Shown one piece after another: positions 27,754-36,872 of a stretch of 64,000 nucleotides of DNA. The position numbers and the translations under genes were made by a program. The notes below the pieces were generated by a model. It saw only the letters and a program-made list of their open reading frames with translations. It did not search any database and was not told the origin of the DNA. This DNA is from Candidatus Hydrothermarchaeum profundi (GTDB lineage: Archaea; Hydrothermarchaeota; Hydrothermarchaeia; Hydrothermarchaeales; Hydrothermarchaeaceae): contig MTMF02000009.1 in the NCBI GenBank assembly GCA_002011125.2, positions 1,850,286 to 1,914,285 on the forward strand, given 5' to 3'. Positions within the stretch are counted from its first letter, which is position 1. Every line of letters begins with the position of its first letter.

Positions 27754-28401
27754 ATGAGTAAAGAAGAGATTTTGAAGAAAGCAGCTGACGCTATTTTAAA
27801 ACAAGACGAGAAGGCTGCTGTTGAAGTTGCAAAGGAAGCGTTAGAAGCGGGTTTAGACCCTGTTGAAGTGATTGAAAAGGGATTTACAGAAGGTATCAGA
27901 GAAGTGGGGGACCTCTTCGATAGGGGTAAGCTTTTTCTCCCGCATGTAATGCTATCAGCAGACGCCATGAAAAAAGCCATCGCAGTTCTTGAGCCTGCTA
28001 TCGGCGAAGGTAAGGGAAAAGAAAAAGTGGGGACCGTCGTAATTGGAACCGTTGAAGGAGATATCCATGAAATCGGGAAAGGAATTGTTTCTATCATGCT
28101 TCAAGTGGCTGGATTCGAGGTCCATGACTTGGGTAGGGACGTGCCATTAAAAAAATTCATAGAAGCCGCAAAGGAAACAAACGCCAACATAGTCGGTGCC
28201 TCAGCTTTAATGACGACTTCCTTACCCGGGCAAAAAGAGCTAATAAATCTGTTGAAAGACGCAGGCATCAGAGATAAGGTTAAGATGATGGTAGGGGGTG
28301 CACCTGCCACTGAGAAATGGGCGCAGAAGATAGGGGCTGACGCCTACGCTGAGAATGCCACAGAGGCTGTGGCAAAGGCAAAAGAATTGGTAACATCATA
28401 A
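27754..28401 (+). CDS. mtbC: Dimethylamine corrinoid protein
   Basis: GDIHEIGK B12 motif, SALMTT; directly upstream of mtbB. Confidence 0.9.
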   Translation: MSKEEILKKAADAILKQDEKAAVEVAKEALEAGLDPVEVIEKGFTEGIREVGDLFDRGKLFLPHVMLSADAMKKAIAVLEPAIGEGKGKEKVGTVVIGTVEGDIHEIGKGIVSIMLQVAGFEVHDLGRDVPLKKFIEAAKETNANIVGASALMTTSLPGQKELINLLKDAGIRDKVKMMVGGAPATEKWAQKIGADAYAENATEAVAKAKELVTS

Positions 28402-28504: not shown

Positions 28505-29911
28505 ATGGATTACCGTGTTAGAATTGGAGACGGCTCATTAAAATACCTCTCCAAGAAAGAGATAAAGGAAGACATTGAAGACGGAACCAAGGACGCTGCT
28601 GACCGCGGAGAAATACCAGAACTAACTGATGACGATAAAGAGAGGCTACTTGAAATAGTAACCGAGCCTAATAAGATCGTCAGCGTTTCACCGGGCGAAG
28701 AGGTAGTTATGACAAATGACGTAGGAACACTCACTATCCAAGGTGACCAAGGGAACAGCGGGGTAGGACTACCGCTAGATCGTATACAATGTATACTTAC
28801 TCAAGAGCGTGCTTTTGGATCTGACACAATGGAACTAGCCCACACCGATTACAGCTTCAAACCCGTTAAGCCCATCATAGCAATGGAACAACAAGCTCTC
28901 GAACAGGCAGAACTATTAACAGTGATACCAGTCTTCTATGGAGCAATGCCAAACCTTGGACAGTACTATGTTATAGACGGGCCTTTCCCAAATCCGAATG
29001 ATCTATATAGAGATCTGAAAATAAAAGAAGCTCGCGAGAGCCAGGAGGAATGCGCTGAGCATGCCTCGAACAATATGAGTTGGATAGGTCAAAGACTTTG
29101 GGAGGTAGGATGCGAAGGACTAAACTTCGATACTACCGCCGCAGCCGGAGATACCGACTTCTATGCTACTCTGACAGCTACTGAAGAGTTAAAGAAGACT
29201 ACCTCTGAAATGTGCATAGAAATGGGCATGGCCGCAGAATACGTGCTCGGGATGCATGGGGAGCTAAAATATGGTGGCGAGCTTCTAGCAGGCCTGTATC
29301 CACATCAGCAAGTAAAAGTCGCAGAAAAAGCAGGAGTAGATATATTTGGTCCAGTAGTGAATACCAATACTAGCAAGTCTTTTCCATGGAATATTGCAAG
29401 AGCGCTTACTTTCGTGAAGGAATGCGTAAAACAGTCCAATATACCCATACATGTCAACATGGGAATGGGCGTAGGCGGAATCCCCATGTACGAGACGCCG
29501 CCAGTAGATGCCGTTACAAGGGCTTCTAAGGCAATGGTTCAGATTGCCCACGTCGACGGTATATAGATGGGAGTCGGCGACCCGGTGGGCATGCCTATAA
29601 GCCATATAATGGCATCTGGCATGGGCGGACTTAGAACAGCGGGAGACCTAGTTGCTAGAATGCAGATGAGCAAAAAAATGAGGATTAATGAAGCCAAGGA
29701 GTATGTAGCGAAAAAGCTAAACTTAACTCCAAGCGAGCTCTCAGACGAGTATGTCATGAGAGAAGTGAGAGAAGAGCTGGATATAGGGATTATAACACCA
29801 GTACCGGGAGCAGCGAAAGGGATAGAAGCTAAAGTCAGGATCGCTGAGCTACTGGATATAACTATAAATCCGGTAGAGAGACTAAAAAATAAAGAAAAAT
29901 TCAAAAGCTAA
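28505..29911 (+). CDS. mtbB: Dimethylamine:corrinoid methyltransferase, pyrrolysine at in-frame TAG 29564-29566 (codon 354; 468 aa)
   Basis: Two track ORFs in one frame separated only by TAG; VDGI-O-MGVGDP context matches MtbB. Confidence 0.93.
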
Positions 29912-30060: not shown

Positions 30061-30957
30061 ATGTTAGAACTCTACGATAAAGTAAGGAAGGAAATTGTAG
30101 GCAGAGATCGAGAGCTTTTAAGAATTTTATCTGCTTTAGAAGCCAAAAAACATTTGTTACTTGAGGGACCGCCAGGTACCTCAAAGTCAACCATCTTGAG
30201 GACTATAACTAGGCTGTCTAATATCCCTTTTTATCTTTTAGAGGGTAATATCGATTTAACTCCAGCAAAGCTGGTTGGTCACTTTAATCCAGCAGAAGTT
30301 ATATCTGATAATTATAAACCGGAATACTTCAATAAAGGCCCCTTAACAAAAGCCATGGAAGAGGGCGGATTCCTTTATATTGAAGAATTTAATCGAATGC
30401 CGGCAGATGCTACAAATGTGCTATTAGTAGCTATGGAAGAAGGAGAGATAAATATTCCCAGATACGGTAAAGTAGTAGCCAAACCAGGTTTTACCGTGAT
30501 ATGCGCTCAAAACCCTCTTGACGATGTAGGTACTCTTCGTGTGAGCAGAGCATTTCTAGATAGAGTATGCAGAATAAAGCTTGACTATCAATCCGAAGAA
30601 GAAGAAATTAAAATCGTAGAAGAGAGAACAGGAACAAAAAATAAAGACTTAATTAAATTAGCGGTTAAACTGGCAAGAGAAACTAGAGACCATCCCGATT
30701 TGAAATTAGGAGTCTCTATTAGAGGACCTATTGATATGGTTCAAATAGCCGAAAAGATGCTTAGGCTTGATTTAGATGAAAGGGAAGCTCTTTTAGACTC
30801 GATGATGCTGGCTTTCAGCGGAAAAGTATGGCTTGATGAGCTTTCTGAAAAATCTCAAGAAGAGGTCCTAGAAGAAATATTTAATCAAATATATACTCCC
30901 ACGGGCGCTACTAAAAAAAAAGTAAGCCTGGAACTAATAAGAAAGGAGAAGAACTAA
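30061..30957 (+). CDS. MoxR/CoxD-family AAA+ ATPase (0-frame product)
   Basis: LLLEGPPGTSKS, YIEEFNR, AQNP, AFLDR, SIRG. Confidence 0.9.
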   Translation: MLELYDKVRKEIVGRDRELLRILSALEAKKHLLLEGPPGTSKSTILRTITRLSNIPFYLLEGNIDLTPAKLVGHFNPAEVISDNYKPEYFNKGPLTKAMEEGGFLYIEEFNRMPADATNVLLVAMEEGEINIPRYGKVVAKPGFTVICAQNPLDDVGTLRVSRAFLDRVCRIKLDYQSEEEEIKIVEERTGTKNKDLIKLAVKLARETRDHPDLKLGVSIRGPIDMVQIAEKMLRLDLDEREALLDSMMLAFSGKVWLDELSEKSQEEVLEEIFNQIYTPTGATKKKVSLELIRKEKN

Positions 30958-31844
30958 CGCAACTTGAATCTGATGATAGCGAAGAAAAACCAAGCATCGA
31001 TATAGAAAAAGAATTCGAAAAATCCCCATATCATCTCGCGAAATACTTCAATGCTAATCCTGAAGAACTAGCGAAGGTATTCAGTTCTAAGAAAGCTCTT
31101 AAGATATATGGCGATATTTCCAGCATGCTTAAACCTGAAACAAAAGAAATAGCAAAGAAGTATATTAGGAGGCTCATTATAAAACTTGGAGTATCGCTGG
31201 CCAATCCAGGATATCAGCGAGATAAGATTGTTCCCTTGAATGATATAACACTATCAGACGATATCGAGATAGATAGAACAATCGAGAAAATTATACAGGC
31301 CCCGGAACTTCCCTTAGAGGATAACATCACCGTTTTAGGCAGAAAGAAGAAGAAACAAGATATCGTGCTAATGTTAGATAGGAGCTTTTCTATGAAGGGG
31401 ATCAAAACCGTCTTGTCAGCTATAACTGCCTCTGCGATTTCTTTACATTTTAAGGGGAATGTATCTGTCCTATTTTTTAACGATAAATCAAAATTCATTA
31501 AAAAAAGAAACCAAAAGATGGTTTTAGATTCTATAGTAGATAAGATTCTCGATTTAGATGTAGAAGGAGGAACAAATATAAGGAAAGCCCTTGAAATGGG
31601 CCTACAAGAAATATCATCCTCAGACAAAAAAAGAGGACTACTTCTTACAGATGGTAACTGGACGGTAGGAGCTAATCCCTTAAGTGTGGCACAGAAGTAT
31701 GATAAGCTAGACGTAATCTGCTTCCCACCAGCTAATAGTGAGAAATCCAAGCTTTTAGCATTAAAAGGAAACGGAACCCTAGAATATGTTGAAAGGGAAG
31801 AGGATATTTTCAGAGCAATATTAAGCTGCCTACGGCTAAACTAG
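30921..31844 (+). CDS. vWA (CoxE-like) domain, probably the -1 frame continuation of the MoxR gene
   Basis: DRSFSM MIDAS, GGTN, LLTDG; frame is open from 30915, 70 codons before the first ATG (31125). Confidence 0.8.
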   Translation, partial: SKPGTNKKGEELTQLESDDSEEKPSIDIEKEFEKSPYHLAKYFNANPEELAKVFSSKKALKIYGDISSMLKPETKEIAKKYIRRLIIKLGVSLANPGYQRDKIVPLNDITLSDDIEIDRTIEKIIQAPELPLEDNITVLGRKKKKQDIVLMLDRSFSMKGIKTVLSAITASAISLHFKGNVSVLFFNDKSKFIKKRNQKMVLDSIVDKILDLDVEGGTNIRKALEMGLQEISSSDKKRGLLLTDGNWTVGANPLSVAQKYDKLDVICFPPANSEKSKLLALKGNGTLEYVEREEDIFRAILSCLRLN

Positions 31845-32425
31845 TTTTTCATATTATATCCGATGAGCAGAGTACCGTCCTTGCTTTTCTCGCAACCCAG
31901 TAAACGCTTCAAGTATTCATCAGAAGGTGTACAAGGGCTACCTGATACTATATCTTCAAGCTCTTCAAATTCCTGGAGCTCTGGAAAAGGAAGAGGCGGC
32001 ATAAGAAAATAAGGCTTTCCTTTTGGAAGTTTATTCTTATACAGTACAAAGTCAGGACCCATAAAAATAACATCTTTCCTTTTTTTCATTTCTTCCAGCT
32101 TTTTGGATCCAACCCATTCTCCAAGAATCTCCCCATCTTCGTCAACCATTACCACCCACGGGCGGGAGGGTTCCCTAAATGTTTTATCAAATAATATCAC
32201 CCATGTCTCGTCCCTTGATAAAGCCTCGAAAGTACCCTCGTTTAAAAAGTCCATCATGCCTTGTACCGCCCCTCTCTCCTGTGCTTTCTTCTCAAGCCTC
32301 AAAATCTCCTCTTTTTCATCCTGGGTAAGAAGTCTTACATCCAGTACTCCTTTAAGGTTCCTAAGCCTAAACATTATCCTTTCGTGGAGGTCTTTTGTTA
32401 CTCCACTAGTACTAGGCCGTTCCAT
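31841..32425 (-). CDS. Hypothetical protein in the methylamine cluster
   Basis: 194-aa ORF with protein-like composition, overlapping the DUF2284 gene; SGSPCTPSD motif. Confidence 0.7.
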   Translation of the reverse strand: MERPSTSGVTKDLHERIMFRLRNLKGVLDVRLLTQDEKEEILRLEKKAQERGAVQGMMDFLNEGTFEALSRDETWVILFDKTFREPSRPWVVMVDEDGEILGEWVGSKKLEEMKKRKDVIFMGPDFVLYKNKLPKGKPYFLMPPLPFPELQEFEELEDIVSGSPCTPSDEYLKRLLGCEKSKDGTLLIGYNMKN

Positions 32426-32994
32426 CTTACATTCTCCTGCGAAGATAATCCTAATGGCATGCCTATGTTTTTACAGGTCCTATAAACATCTATCCCTACA
32501 CCTTCTAACGAGGGTCTGGCCTTAAAAGGTTGATGACATAACTCCCCTTTTTTAGGGTCAGCGCACTCCTCGCAAAGCTTACAATTACCGCCAATCAGTC
32601 CCGTAGCAAGATAGTAGCCCAGCTTAAAAGCTTCTCTTTCGACTGCATTAACTATCTCATGCAACTTAAGCTCATACTTCTCATAAACCTCTTTCTCAAG
32701 TTTATCCACAAGATTTTTAGAAATAGGCTCATTTGACTTATCTAAAGAATCAACGTTCTCCATCTCAAGCTGAATGAATATTGCCTTTTTATACTTTGAT
32801 AAAATCTTCCTAAATTCATCAAATGGTATGGAATTAGGAGGACAGAAATAATATCTATTATATCCATCGCATGGGGGTACCTGACACTTTAATAAAACCC
32901 GCCTATCCATTACTATCGATCCCACATCAATAATCTTCGCCCTAGTAGCCCCTTCCCTTAGACTAACCTCTACGAGCTTCTCAAGCTTATTCAT
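32398..32994 (-). CDS. DUF2284-family Cys-rich metal-binding protein
   Basis: KC..PC..Y...FCPP, GNCKLCEEC, C..P.KARPSLEGVGIDV; start taken at MNKLEK. Confidence 0.85.
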   Translation of the reverse strand: MNKLEKLVEVSLREGATRAKIIDVGSIVMDRRVLLKCQVPPCDGYNRYYFCPPNSIPFDEFRKILSKYKKAIFIQLEMENVDSLDKSNEPISKNLVDKLEKEVYEKYELKLHEIVNAVEREAFKLGYYLATGLIGGNCKLCEECADPKKGELCHQPFKARPSLEGVGIDVYRTCKNIGMPLGLSSQENVRWNGLVLVE

Positions 32995-33113
32995 TGAATC
33001 CCACCTAAATATTATTTTCCGAGTCCTACTACTCAGATAAACATTAACAAGCCTAAAAAAATTTTCTAGAAACAATTTTATTTTTCGAAGGCAATATTCG
33101 ATGCTGATAGTTT

Positions 33114-34745
33114 ATGAAGAGGTACGGGATTGCTTTGGATATGGGCACTAGCGGTTTCCGCGCCCAAGCGATAGATTTGGATGAGGGGGAAATAATCTCA
33201 ACATCAATTACTCTGCGACATCCTATACCCGGAGCTAACGTTATGGACCATGTGACTTTCGCAATAGACGTTGGAACTGATATAACCCACGACCTAATAG
33301 TAATGACAGTAAACAAGCTAATAACAACCCTAAAAATTGACCCGACAAGAGTAGAAAGACTAGCGGTATGTGGTAATCCCTTTCAGCTTTCACTTTTCCA
33401 AAAACTTGAGATACGAGACCTAGCATACGCGGGGGAATCTAAATTAAAGGCTTTAGGAGTAAAACCGCCTAAAAGAGATGCGACCATAATGGATGCCGAA
33501 ACTATTGGACTCAATATAAACCCTGAGGCAAATGTGCTTATACCCCCAGCGGTAAAACATGAAATAGGAGCAGATGCCTTAGCAATGATGCTAAAAACAG
33601 ATTTCCTCGAAAATTCGCCAAGTATAGTCACAGACTACGGAACTAATGCAGAAATGGCGCTAAATGTAGATGGCCAGATATATTCAGGATCTGCTGCCGC
33701 AGGTCCTGCCCTAGAGGGACAACAAATTAAGGAGGGCATGCTAGCTGCTCCAGGTGCTATATCTGATGTAGATCCTGAAGACTCAAAATGGCGTTGCTCC
33801 GTTTTAAGTAAAGAGCTAATGGCTGAAGAGGGAGACCTAATAGATCCCCGCACTGGAGAAATATTTAAAAAAGGGGTCATGCACGGCAAAGTAAAAGGAA
33901 TAACCGGTACTGGCGTTATAGCTGCTATCGCTAGAGGACTACAAGAAGGGTTGGTTGTACCACCAAAGATTAAGACTCCAGACAATAAGGTCCACCTTCA
34001 AGATGGTATTACGATAACTGAGGATGACATAGTCGAGGCTGGAAAAGCTATAGGAGCTATTAGAGCAGGCCATATGACGTTGATAAATGAAGCTGGAATA
34101 AGTATGGAGGAAGTTGAAACAGCCTATATGGCTGGCGCCTTAGGAACGTATGTAGATGCAATTAAAGCTCAGAAAGTAGGCCTAGTGCCATCTACGTGCA
34201 AAAACCTAGTGCAAGTCGGAAACACCTCTCTTTCACTAGCGAGGGATCTGATTTTTGAACCTGAAAAGCTTGAAGAACTCCAAGATTACGCAAACAAGTT
34301 AAGGGCAAAACATGTTATGTTCGCGATATCAAATACCTTCAGAAACATCTTCGTTATAGAGCTTTCTCTTTGGACTGAAGGAATGCCCTTCAGCATGTAT
34401 AATGACATGTTAAAGATGTATAAATTACCGCCAATACCTATGAAGAATGTCAATGCAAAAGTGAATAAAATTGTTCAGAGAGATATTCCAATACTGGGTA
34501 AATATGGAATCACCGTTGTTGAAGATGTAGGTATAATTCTTTCAACTAGAGTATCAGAGTGCATTTACTGTAAAAAATGTATTAGAGAATGTCCTGAGGA
34601 GGCAATAGAGATAATAGAAAAAGATGGTAAGCGAATAGCATTAATAAGATCTGATAAGTGCAATGGAACAGCGTGTCGAAGGTGCGAGATAATTTGTCCT
34701 AAAAATACCCTTAAGCTAAGAGAACTAAAGATAAATACAACCTAA
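33114..34745 (+). CDS. ramA: Methylamine methyltransferase corrinoid reductive activase (ASKHA + ferredoxin)
   Basis: YGIALDMGTSGFR, HPIPGANVMDH, DYGTNAE, C-terminal 2x[4Fe-4S] Cys motifs. Confidence 0.93.
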   Translation: MKRYGIALDMGTSGFRAQAIDLDEGEIISTSITLRHPIPGANVMDHVTFAIDVGTDITHDLIVMTVNKLITTLKIDPTRVERLAVCGNPFQLSLFQKLEIRDLAYAGESKLKALGVKPPKRDATIMDAETIGLNINPEANVLIPPAVKHEIGADALAMMLKTDFLENSPSIVTDYGTNAEMALNVDGQIYSGSAAAGPALEGQQIKEGMLAAPGAISDVDPEDSKWRCSVLSKELMAEEGDLIDPRTGEIFKKGVMHGKVKGITGTGVIAAIARGLQEGLVVPPKIKTPDNKVHLQDGITITEDDIVEAGKAIGAIRAGHMTLINEAGISMEEVETAYMAGALGTYVDAIKAQKVGLVPSTCKNLVQVGNTSLSLARDLIFEPEKLEELQDYANKLRAKHVMFAISNTFRNIFVIELSLWTEGMPFSMYNDMLKMYKLPPIPMKNVNAKVNKIVQRDIPILGKYGITVVEDVGIILSTRVSECIYCKKCIRECPEEAIEIIEKDGKRIALIRSDKCNGTACRRCEIICPKNTLKLRELKINTT

Positions 34746-34792: not shown

Positions 34793-34812
34793 AAAGAGTA
34801 TATTCTTTACCT

Positions 34813-36192
34813 CTACTTGATGTCAACGCCGAGTTCCCGTAGAGTGTTCACGGCCTTATCATACACCTGCAGGTGCTCCTCAGTAGGAACAACCTTAACC
34901 ACGTCATAACACTCCTGGAACCTCTTACCCTTAGGCGCCGTCTTATAGTCACTCTCGTACTTCTTAATCAAATTATCCAAGATCACGTTAACCTCACTGA
35001 TATCCATGCCAGCCACAGCAATAGCCGCCTCACCCATAATCCGGGCCTCCATACCAGTCGTATAATCCAACGCAACGCCCTTAGCACTAGCACTACCACT
35101 AACAAGCTCACGGCCACTAGCAGTGTCAGTAATAGCCTGAGCAGCCGTCTCCAACAAACACATCTCAGTACACGGACCCGCCAACGGATAATACTGGTTC
35201 GAAGTCAACAAATGAGTATTCTCATCAATAGCCCTAGCCGTATGCCCAGCCACCTGCAGGGTCTCACGCGCAGTAGTGATACCCCACCTGATATGGATAG
35301 GCCCATCCAAGTGATAACTCCCATTCAACAAGGTGAAGCTCGTCAAATGAGTAGCCACGTTACAGATCGAGGTCTCCTCGACCCCGCCAGCATAGCCACC
35401 AAAGATAGGCATCTGCTCCACCATAATAATATCACCATTCTGAACCCAACCAGCAATCATATGCAGGCCACCATTATCAATCTTAAGCTCATTCAACTGA
35501 CTGATCTCATGGCTATCACAAGGCCTCAAGCCACCCAGGAGATCCCCGGCAAGACGCCCCGCACTCGTCAAGGGCGTCTCTGGGCCCTAAACCGCCATAT
35601 AGGGTCTCCCAGCCTTACGACAAGCCTCACGGATATAATACAACTCAAACAGAGTAGCCTTAATCTCCCAAGGACTACCGCTAGTAGCCTCATTACCCTC
35701 AATAGTAGCCAACACACCATTCACAATAGTATCCACCGTAGGCTCCTGAGCATAACTCTGAAACATCGGGATAAAAATATCCTCACTAACAGGAGCACCC
35801 GTAGGACCGCCCTGAATAACAGGCTTAAAACCAGGATTACCACGACGCTGCGCCATATCCACTGCGTCCTGATACTCGCCCAACACGAGCTTCCTAGGCG
35901 CCTTCTTAATAGACTCAAGAACCTCGTCCTCAGAGACCCTGATAACCCTTCCGGTGTCAATATTATAGATCCCAGTCTCCACCAACATCTCCAAGCCGGC
36001 CTGGAACAAGTTATCAATCAGCTCACTGTCCGTAGGAATAATCTCACCCGAAAACTTGATGTTATACTTCTCCTTCATCTTAGCAGCATTCTGCGGGATA
36101 ATCTTATAATCCCAGTCACGCTCACTAACCTTCTCCCCACTAATCGACCTATTATAGGTCTCATACACATCTAAAGGCCTACCAACCGCCAA
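34813..36192 (-). CDS. mtmB: Monomethylamine:corrinoid methyltransferase, pyrrolysine at in-frame TAG 35587-35589 (codon 202; 459 aa)
   Basis: AGRPYMAV-O-GPETPL context; Pyl at codon 202 as in Methanosarcina MtmB; SD GGAGGTGA before TTG. Confidence 0.95.
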
Positions 36193-36227: not shown

Positions 36228-36872
36228 TTAGTCGCCAACAAGCTCCTTCGCAATCCTCACAGCCTCAGCACCATTCGGACAATAAGCGTCACCGCCAATC
36301 TCATCCACCCACTCCTGGTTAACAGGCGCACCGCCAAACAACGTCTTCACCTTATCCCGGATCCCAGCCTCCTTCAAAGCCTTAACAATCTCCCTCTGAC
36401 CAGGACGCGTAGTAGTCATAAGAGCACTAGCACCAACGATATCAGCATTAACCTCCTTAGCGGTCTCAACGAACTTATCGATAGGAGCATCCCGGCCAAT
36501 ATCAATCACATCAAAGCCAGCGCCCTGAAGCATAGCAGCAACAACGTTCTTACCGATCTCATGGATATCCCCCTCAACAGTACCGATAACCACTACCTTA
36601 CCCATCTTCTCCCCAGACTCCATGATCTTAGGCTTCAAGACCTCAAGACCCGCCTGCATAGCCTCCGCAGCCATCAAGATCTGAGGCAAAAAGATCTTGG
36701 CCTCATCAAAAAGGTCGCTGATAGTCATCATACCCCTACCCAAGCCGTCATTAATAGCCTCAAAAGGCTCAATGCCCGCCTCCAACGCCTCCTTAGCCGC
36801 AGAGCTAGCCAAGTCAGCATCATAGGTCTCCACGGCTTTCTTCAACTTATCAAGAATCTCCTGCTTAAACAA
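36228..36872 (-). CDS. mtmC: Monomethylamine corrinoid protein
   Basis: GDIHEIGKN, SALMTTT; directly upstream of mtmB. Confidence 0.9.
   Translation of the reverse strand: MFKQEILDKLKKAVETYDADLASSAAKEALEAGIEPFEAINDGLGRGMMTISDLFDEAKIFLPQILMAAEAMQAGLEVLKPKIMESGEKMGKVVVIGTVEGDIHEIGKNVVAAMLQGAGFDVIDIGRDAPIDKFVETAKEVNADIVGASALMTTTRPGQREIVKALKEAGIRDKVKTLFGGAPVNQEWVDEIGGDAYCPNGAEAVRIAKELVGD

Follow-up and report, generated by a model that had tools for sequence, protein, structure and literature searches.

We analyzed a candidate recoded gene at 30061-31844 (forward strand) of a 64,000-nucleotide (nt) stretch of Candidatus Hydrothermarchaeum profundi DNA, contig MTMF02000009.1, hereafter the window. 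In this gene, the frame of a MoxR-class AAA+ ATPase meets the frame of a von Willebrand factor A (vWA) protein at a run of nine adenines (A9), and an initial annotation had proposed that a programmed -1 frameshift joins the two. Our comparison with related loci indicates that programmed slippage at the run, transcriptional and/or ribosomal, probably yields both an ATPase of 298 amino acids (aa) and an ATPase-vWA fusion of 594 aa. The core of the proposal, one recoded gene with a -1 event at the adenine run, was supported by the run and offset shared among relatives, by independent contigs that carry A9, and by the lack of a conserved start for the vWA frame.

The junction of the ATPase and vWA frames

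The upstream open reading frame (ORF), 30061-30957, starts with the ATG at 30061 and encodes a 298-aa protein with the Walker A motif GPPGTSKS. Its Pfam matches were AAA_5 (75.2 bits, cut-off 22), AAA_3 (57.5 bits, cut-off 27) and bpMoxR (33.1 bits, cut-off 27). Near its 3' end the frame reads ACT AAA AAA AAA GTA. The A9 run at 30913-30921, the proposed slip site, contains A_AAA_AAA in phase and encodes a lysine run followed by 11 sense codons and the 0-frame TAA at 30955-30957, 33 nt past the run, which ends the short product. In the -1 frame a TAA at 30912-30914 directly abuts the run on its 5' side, so that the run is precisely where the vWA frame becomes open; many relatives share this T/TAA or TGA edge 5' of the run.

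From 30915, the -1 frame is open for 309 codons to the stop at 31842-31844. After a slip at A9 the continuation (30921-31844) would comprise 307 codons plus the stop, which together with 287 upstream codons gives a long product of 594 aa. The continuation encodes an acidic linker, a Y..A.Y.N..PEEL segment and a vWA domain, the domain proper lying at 31359-31724 (residues 149-270 of the -1 frame), and the frame matched VWA_CoxE (40.6 bits, cut-off 26.4) and VWA (30.3 bits, cut-off 23.8). The residues of the metal-ion-dependent adhesion site (MIDAS) are encoded at 31377-31391 (D-x-S-x-S), 31572-31574 (T) and 31650-31652 (D), and D155, S157, S159, T220 and D246 were invariant across 13 aligned vWA sequences. 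The first ATG, GTG or TTG of the vWA frame is the ATG at 31125-31127, 70 codons after the frame opens and within a conserved region of the protein; reading the upstream sequence revealed no purine-rich stretch resembling a Shine-Dalgarno (SD) element ahead of it. The run, the 0-frame stop, the TAA at 30912, the open -1 frame and the position and missing SD of the first ATG, all described in the initial annotation, were borne out by the sequence, and the frame arithmetic reproduced both predicted product sizes.

A true A10 would turn the locus into a plain in-frame fusion gene, and an assembly or sequencing error of this kind has to be weighed since homopolymers are error-prone and A10 in-frame fusions exist in relatives. 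We compared the junction with Logan contigs made independently from two sequencing runs, which come from two studies and are both flagged as possible sources of this DNA. The contig of run X1 (37,052 nt, depth 88.6) matched 30300-31500 and that of run X2 (3,387 nt, depth 50.4) matched 30300-31104, each with 0 differences, 0 gaps and A9, with the proviso that contigs drop rare variants and minor A10 forms could be hidden in this comparison. A9 was also kept in two low-depth relatives (X3 and X4), hence in contigs of four runs in all, and the same -1 layout was found in 34 lineages from many assemblies, as described below. We consider an assembly error at this run very improbable. The X4 contig (depth 3.9) differs at 30929-30942 by a G>A change and an inserted A at 30941 that makes an A7, and the X3 contig (depth 4.6) carries an extra A behind 30847, within an upstream A5, that would truncate the ATPase; both insertions may be errors because of the low depth.

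The A9 is the sole A9/T9 in the window. Shuffled sequences held 4.76 such runs on average, with at least one in 95 of 100 shuffles, and chance alone would often place an A9 in 64 kb. Across the 2.19-Mb genome there are 63 A/T runs of at least 9, from which the chance of finding one in the 43-nt frame overlap is about 1 in 1000. Decisive against chance is that relatives retain the run at the homologous position. Elsewhere in the same genome, positions 331580-343460 of contig C9 hold seven A/T runs of at least 9 (one of them A11) in about 12 kb, a density far above the genome average of one per about 35 kb.

The adenine run and the frame offset in relatives

Both split and fused homologues were recovered. 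The near-length search returned vWA ORFs of 237-278 aa, together with longer vWA proteins (P0009 and P0013-P0015) whose N-terminus is the C-terminal part of MoxR fused in frame. Among 6205 candidates, the search for longer proteins yielded 10 in which MoxR, linker and vWA are joined in frame (556-628 aa), and an exhaustive search gave both size classes among 416 representatives, with fusions of about 585-660 aa. In alignments the two ORFs of the window together span the whole length of the in-frame fusions, with 54-59% identity over the MoxR half. The adenine run falls in the variable linker of the fusions, and ahead of the ATG at 31125 the vWA frame encodes a conserved Y..A.Y.N.HPEEL..FF segment. 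The closest relative carries both halves split on one 130,457-nt contig with the same layout. Its MoxR protein (P0174) is 80% identical, 295 aa long and ends with KKK plus six residues, and its vWA ORF (P0004) is 71% identical, the alignment beginning 30 residues before the first Met of the window. Short MoxR homologues numbered 2585 at E<=1e-60, and 91 of the 119 listed have KKK or more within their last 40 residues. Among all 35 genomes of the order, this genome (G000) and G007 were the only carriers at E<=1e-8. In the distant homologue of G007 (L002, 1322-1345), the MoxR gene ends with an A13 at which the -1 frame becomes open; this locus may use slippage, coupling or both.

We took 80 metagenome loci and 80 species-representative loci for an analysis of the junction DNA. 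Among the latter, L088-L129 make up the family, and L130-L167, weak vWA-only matches (E >= 4e-7, mostly Verrucomicrobiota), were left out. The 56 metagenome loci with both halves, two further loci with a partial MoxR match having been excluded, comprised 34 with a -1 offset, 19 in the same frame and 3 at +1. An upstream MoxR half was present in 39 of the 42 species-representative loci, and of these 23 were -1, 13 in the same frame (12 fused and one with an in-frame TGA) and 3 at +1. The 84 loci with a MoxR match spanning residues <=20 to >=230 were clustered at 95% identity, generating 57 lineages. The -1 offset with a run of A9-A14 was found in 34 of the 57, including the window, which we counted as -1 (automatic scoring gave 0 as its MoxR match overran the run). 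One lineage (L004) was -1 without a run, one was +1, and three had an in-frame stop; the other 18 were fused, seven with an in-frame run of at least nine adenines, three with A7-8 and eight with no run. The homologues are thus not always in frame, and the same run and -1 offset recur among them as the initial annotation implied.

The run lengths in the 34 lineages were A9 (9 lineages), A10 (8), A11 (14) and A12, A13 and A14 (one each), and the first A fell in codon phase 0, 1 or 2 in 13, 7 and 14 of the -1 lineages, respectively. In relatives the 0-frame stop mostly lies 8-14 nt past the run. The linker holds 44 of the 55 A/T runs of at least 9 in 338,279 nt of representative loci, and in a junction alignment of 25 sequences the A columns were the sole invariant columns. 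On the MoxR tree, no fewer than 8 changes are required to explain the -1/A-run state, and well-supported branches force 5 of them; the window sequence groups with a bacterial clade, and the archaeal pair L002/L004 is split off by a 100/100 branch. Named carriers are Desulfobacterales and other Thermodesulfobacteriota, Bacillota (Thermincola, Peptococcaceae and Syntrophomonadaceae), Thermodesulfovibrionales, Nitrospinota and Methylomirabilota.

Among relatives, the pattern of variation is that of the -1 frame as soon as the run ends. Twelve -1 lineages whose 0-frame stop lies 13 nt past the run could be aligned without gaps; over the 30 nt after the run, their summed column entropy was 4.39, 4.21 and 11.73 for the first, second and third codon positions of the -1 frame, and the third-position variation held also where this frame overlaps the 0-frame tail. 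A (D/E)(D/E)R(Y/F)VG... motif is conserved in the peptide after the run and recurs in the in-frame fusions, and in bacterial relatives the vWA frame is conserved from the first codon after the run. The first possible starts of the vWA frame were scattered among relatives, often inside the conserved region. Judged from these alignments, the ATG at 31125 is not a conserved start, and the check for independent initiation of the vWA gene, a possibility acknowledged in the initial annotation, found no conserved start and a protein conserved upstream of this ATG.

Several observations weigh against a single recoded gene. The 0-frame tail of the window has 11 codons, compared to the usual 3-5, and its linker is without the DDRYVG motif of the bacterial members. 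The distant archaeal homologues of G054/G055 (L003 and L004) are separate genes with their own ATGA or spaced starts and no run, and in G007 a GTG overlaps the MoxR stop by 4 nt, suggesting that independent initiation is possible in the superfamily. Gene callers also predict the 237-278 aa vWA ORFs as separate genes in many relatives, and MoxR/vWA pairs (NorQ/NorD, CbbQ/CbbO, CoxD/CoxE, RavA/ViaA) are usually encoded by two genes. The separate archaeal genes, the GTG of G007, the gene calls and the usual two-gene pairs would suit two ordinary adjacent genes, the vWA gene starting at the ATG at 31125 or at an upstream non-canonical codon and the run being no more than three lysine codons. Two such genes would leave unexplained a frame that lacks ATG, GTG and TTG for 70 codons and yet is open exactly from the run, a protein conserved upstream of the first Met (compared with P0004 and with the fusions), the scatter of the first starts, and third-position variation that begins right after the run. 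The uninterrupted A9-A14 is also kept in 34 lineages though AAG equally encodes lysine. We therefore regard two independently initiated genes as unlikely.

The remaining adverse points concern the stability of the run. Near-identical sequences of the L014 cluster (L014/L015) differ between A11/-1 and A10/+1, and L116 and L127, near-identical sequences on two contigs of one metagenome-assembled genome that differ in run length only, are A10/-1 and A9/+1, respectively. Such differences fit a hypermutable tract or homopolymer sequencing error, and the one between L116 and L127 may reflect a homopolymer error of long-read assembly or real tract variation. The A inserted in the X4 contig would fuse the MoxR and vWA frames without recoding, and the X3 contig has its extra A in the upstream A5. 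Poly-A is slippery for DNA polymerase too, according to PMC3711429. If the tract were hypermutable at the DNA level, serving as a phase-variable switch or marking a recent inactivating frameshift of a fused gene, A9 cells would make the ATPase only and the fusion would occur only in A10 (or A7) variants of the population. However, the out-of-frame state is nearly always -1 (34 lineages compared to 1) and not a random mix, and Bacillota, Thermodesulfobacteriota and this archaeon all retain it together with an intact downstream ORF and MIDAS. The high-depth contigs of two runs have a single A9 form, though contigs drop rare variants, and the protein would act as a helper in the cytoplasm rather than at the cell surface. 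A hypermutable tract is an improbable explanation, and we favor a programmed site in a single gene.

Other layouts in the family could also give two products. In fused genes that keep A10, insertion of one A meets a stop 0-2 codons on at 6 of 8 runs, and a one-base event would thus be predicted to toggle short and long forms in split and fused layouts alike. A MoxR-only gene lies directly upstream of a run-less fused gene in L018 (501-1424), L028 (877-1770) and L107, an arrangement that mirrors chlI beside chlD. In L108 (3516-3518; isolate Desulfospira joergensenii DSM 10085) and in L019, the linker has an in-frame TGA and no adenine run, and the vWA part stays in the same frame past the TGA, without a start codon. 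This TGA may be a third route to two forms, by readthrough or selenocysteine, or the gene may simply be broken.

The proposed slip and the methylamine gene neighborhood

In the proposed mechanism, standard decoding of 30061-30957 would give the 298-aa MoxR-class ATPase, and in a fraction of events one extra base would be gained at the A9 run. Either the RNA polymerase would slip to generate an A10 mRNA, or the ribosome would move back one base on A_AAA_AAA; both routes would lead to an identical 594-aa protein, with reading continued in the -1 frame through the acidic linker into the MIDAS-containing vWA domain. By analogy with ChlI/ChlD, and with NorQ/NorD and CbbQ/CbbO, the short form might build an ATPase ring to which the long form adds a tethered vWA adaptor that grips the client, the slip rate setting the ratio of short to long forms. 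We infer that both forms are produced and that they co-assemble.

We evaluated which of the two routes is the more plausible. Downstream RNA structure is usual for efficient ribosomal -1 shifts and is not required for slippage. The consensus fold of 25 junctions had 0 pairs, indicating no conserved downstream structure, and in the 89 nt downstream of the run in the window (fold of -5.5 kcal/mol, z +0.89) no stimulatory structure was found. Every run in the -1 lineages has at least nine adenines regardless of codon phase; a ribosomal A_AAA_AAA needs seven in the best phase, so the long runs in any phase favor slippage by RNA polymerase. To our knowledge, such sites have been tested only in E. 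coli reporters, and not for slippage by an archaeal polymerase or ribosome, a further caution for the proposal. By a rule of thumb in PMC3711429, a near-exclusive -1 direction is more typical of ribosomal than of transcriptional events. The near-exclusive -1 direction in this family counts in favor of the ribosomal route, and from these sequence features taken together transcriptional slippage seems only slightly preferable to a ribosomal shift as the main route.

The gene lies in a neighborhood of methylamine genes. On the forward strand, a corrinoid protein (27754-28401; Pfam B12-binding) and the dimethylamine methyltransferase MtbB (28505-29911; Dimeth_Pyl, 769 bits) precede it. On the reverse strand it is followed by a 194-aa protein with no Pfam match (31841-32425) and a DUF2284 protein (32398-33075). 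Beyond these lie a RACo/RamA-type corrinoid reductive activase (33114-34745, forward), MtmB (34807-36192, reverse) and a second corrinoid protein (36228-36872, reverse), and an Amt-family transporter is also in the neighborhood. Both MtbB and MtmB carry an in-frame TAG, in agreement with the earlier suggestion of two kinds of recoding in one locus. Homologues of the 194-aa protein with 28-30% identity stand beside the RACo activase in the bacterial loci L094, L107, L111 and L126, and the protein, as yet unnamed, belongs to one helper set with MoxR-vWA and DUF2284. Nothing relevant to this module was found in the DUF2284 literature searched.

We counted neighbors in flanks of 3-3.5 kb. Beside the gene in 35 -1 lineages were DUF2284 (23 lineages), MtbB (20, upstream of the gene), corrinoid proteins (10), rubrerythrin-like proteins (7) and RACo (4), and in 18 fused lineages rubrerythrin-like proteins (8), CobW (5), DBI_PRT (2) and MtbB (2). 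From the conserved company of MtbB, DUF2284, corrinoid proteins, RACo or CobW, it is reasonable to infer a corrinoid-linked helper or chaperone role, the conserved gene neighborhood being the whole basis for this assignment. The client is most likely a corrinoid protein, a methyltransferase or a cobamide-handling step, because the neighbors are MtbB, DUF2284, corrinoid proteins and RACo, with CobW and rubrerythrin-like proteins in sister clades. The MtbB of the window is 63-78% identical to bacterial MtbB, and its MoxR half groups with bacterial sequences, not with G007, the only other carrier in the order. On this evidence, bacteria and this archaeon seem to have shared the methylamine module by lateral transfer.

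A wider proposal can be put forward tentatively. The slip rate might act as a stoichiometry device that gives a MoxR ring with one or a few tethered vWA adaptors, and the ring might form, together with DUF2284 and RACo, a dedicated and so far undescribed system for maturation or cofactor loading of pyrrolysine-dependent methylamine methyltransferases and corrinoid proteins; the whole module, slip site included, might have moved between bacteria and the archaeon. We consider this possible but doubtful. The unstudied helper set of MoxR-vWA, DUF2284 and the 194-aa protein accompanies methylamine methyltransferase and corrinoid genes and offers a concrete lead on the assembly of these enzymes or of their corrinoid partners. 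Production of both forms would mean that annotation pipelines mis-describe thousands of loci: the 2585 MoxR homologues are called as ATPases that stand alone, and the vWA gene next to each is a ‘hypothetical’ one lacking its N-terminal part. The family also holds three evolutionary solutions: some members have a slip site, others are fused in frame and retain the run, and others combine a fusion with a duplicate of the ATPase gene. For an archaeon, the site would be among the few cellular recoding sites besides pyrrolysine, both of them in the same operon neighborhood.

Comparison with known systems

The gene resembles the MoxR/vWA remodeling pairs in combining an AAA_5-type ATPase with a vWA partner that has a MIDAS and matches VWA_CoxE best in Pfam, and in adjoining the metallo- or cofactor enzyme that it presumably serves. 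The nearest solved relatives of the ATPase in the PDB are the midasin AAA, MoxR 2r44, NorQ and CbbQ; the vWA half has no sequence match there. Those pairs are translated from two separate genes, whereas here a slip site would give access to the vWA partner, and some relatives have it as an in-frame fusion. No description of a corrinoid methyltransferase system as client of a MoxR/vWA pair was found in the literature searched.

A second comparison is with dnaX, for which PMC3711429 summarizes an A_AAA_AAG frameshift in E. coli and transcriptional slippage at an A9 in Thermus, giving tau and gamma. As in dnaX, two products of fixed ratio would come from one gene by a slip at an adenine run, and likewise the long form would need the slip in some lineages and the short form in others. 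The dnaX protein is unrelated, and in E. coli dnaX a hairpin and an SD-like element stimulate the shift, whereas no conserved structure was found here.

The closest parallel is the frameshifted chelatase gene, fs-chlD. The precedent of a chlD-type frameshift at an adenine run, invoked in the initial annotation, is real (Antonov et al. 2013, PMC3711429; Kuznetsov et al. 2022, PMC9227772). In the former, 23 genes from bacteria and from Methanocaldococcus and Methanococcus make up a ‘magnesium chelatase’ cluster with a -1 poly-A site, and poly-A -1 sites in E. coli reporters gave 63% (A11), 40% (A9) and 10% (A7) frameshifting; according to the latter, fs-chlD yields the small and medium chelatase subunits. 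Our positive control, an archaeal chlD-type gene of G060 (L170:1558-1581), has the published A9 -1 anatomy (GTA AAA AAA AAC), with the 0-frame stop four codons past the run and the -1 frame open into the vWA domain. The window gene and fs-chlD have in common an AAA+ module, an acidic linker with a poly-A -1 site, a vWA domain with MIDAS, a 0-frame stop that follows the run by a few codons, and fused relatives that are in frame.

The proteins themselves differ. Membership in ChlD/BchD was rejected (TIGR02031, 26 bits against a cut-off of 499.55), as was membership in Cob-chelat-sub (TIGR02442, 29.2 bits against 779.45); in the genome search, the BchD-ChlD model gave 25.7 bits here compared to 285-431 for true chlD (G038, G059 and G060). 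The ATPase module was also rejected as ChlI-type, its best Pfam match being AAA_5 and the Mg_chelatase match reaching 29.8 bits with no stretch that passes alone. There is no AAA_lid_2 in the ATPase of the window, whereas the chlD control of G060 has both AAA_lid_2 and Mg_chelatase, and BLASTP of the window against the N-terminal half of that control gave 26% identity with an E-value of 0.001. No CobN/ChlH large subunit (PF02514) was found in G000, which is 97.65% complete; in a control, it was found in 5 of 14 named genomes. The neighbors of the window gene are methylamine methyltransferase genes and not chelatase genes.

No paper on this MoxR-vWA family was found in a search that covered literature other than the supplementary cluster lists of PMC3711429 and PMC9227772. 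The site is best read as a conserved recoding site; sites of this kind have been published, but the literature searched does not describe one for this family. On the evidence of its sequence, the window gene probably works like fs-chlD but belongs to a different family (AAA_5/MoxR), and the logic of two subunits from one gene, as in chlD, would thereby be extended to a second AAA+/vWA family.

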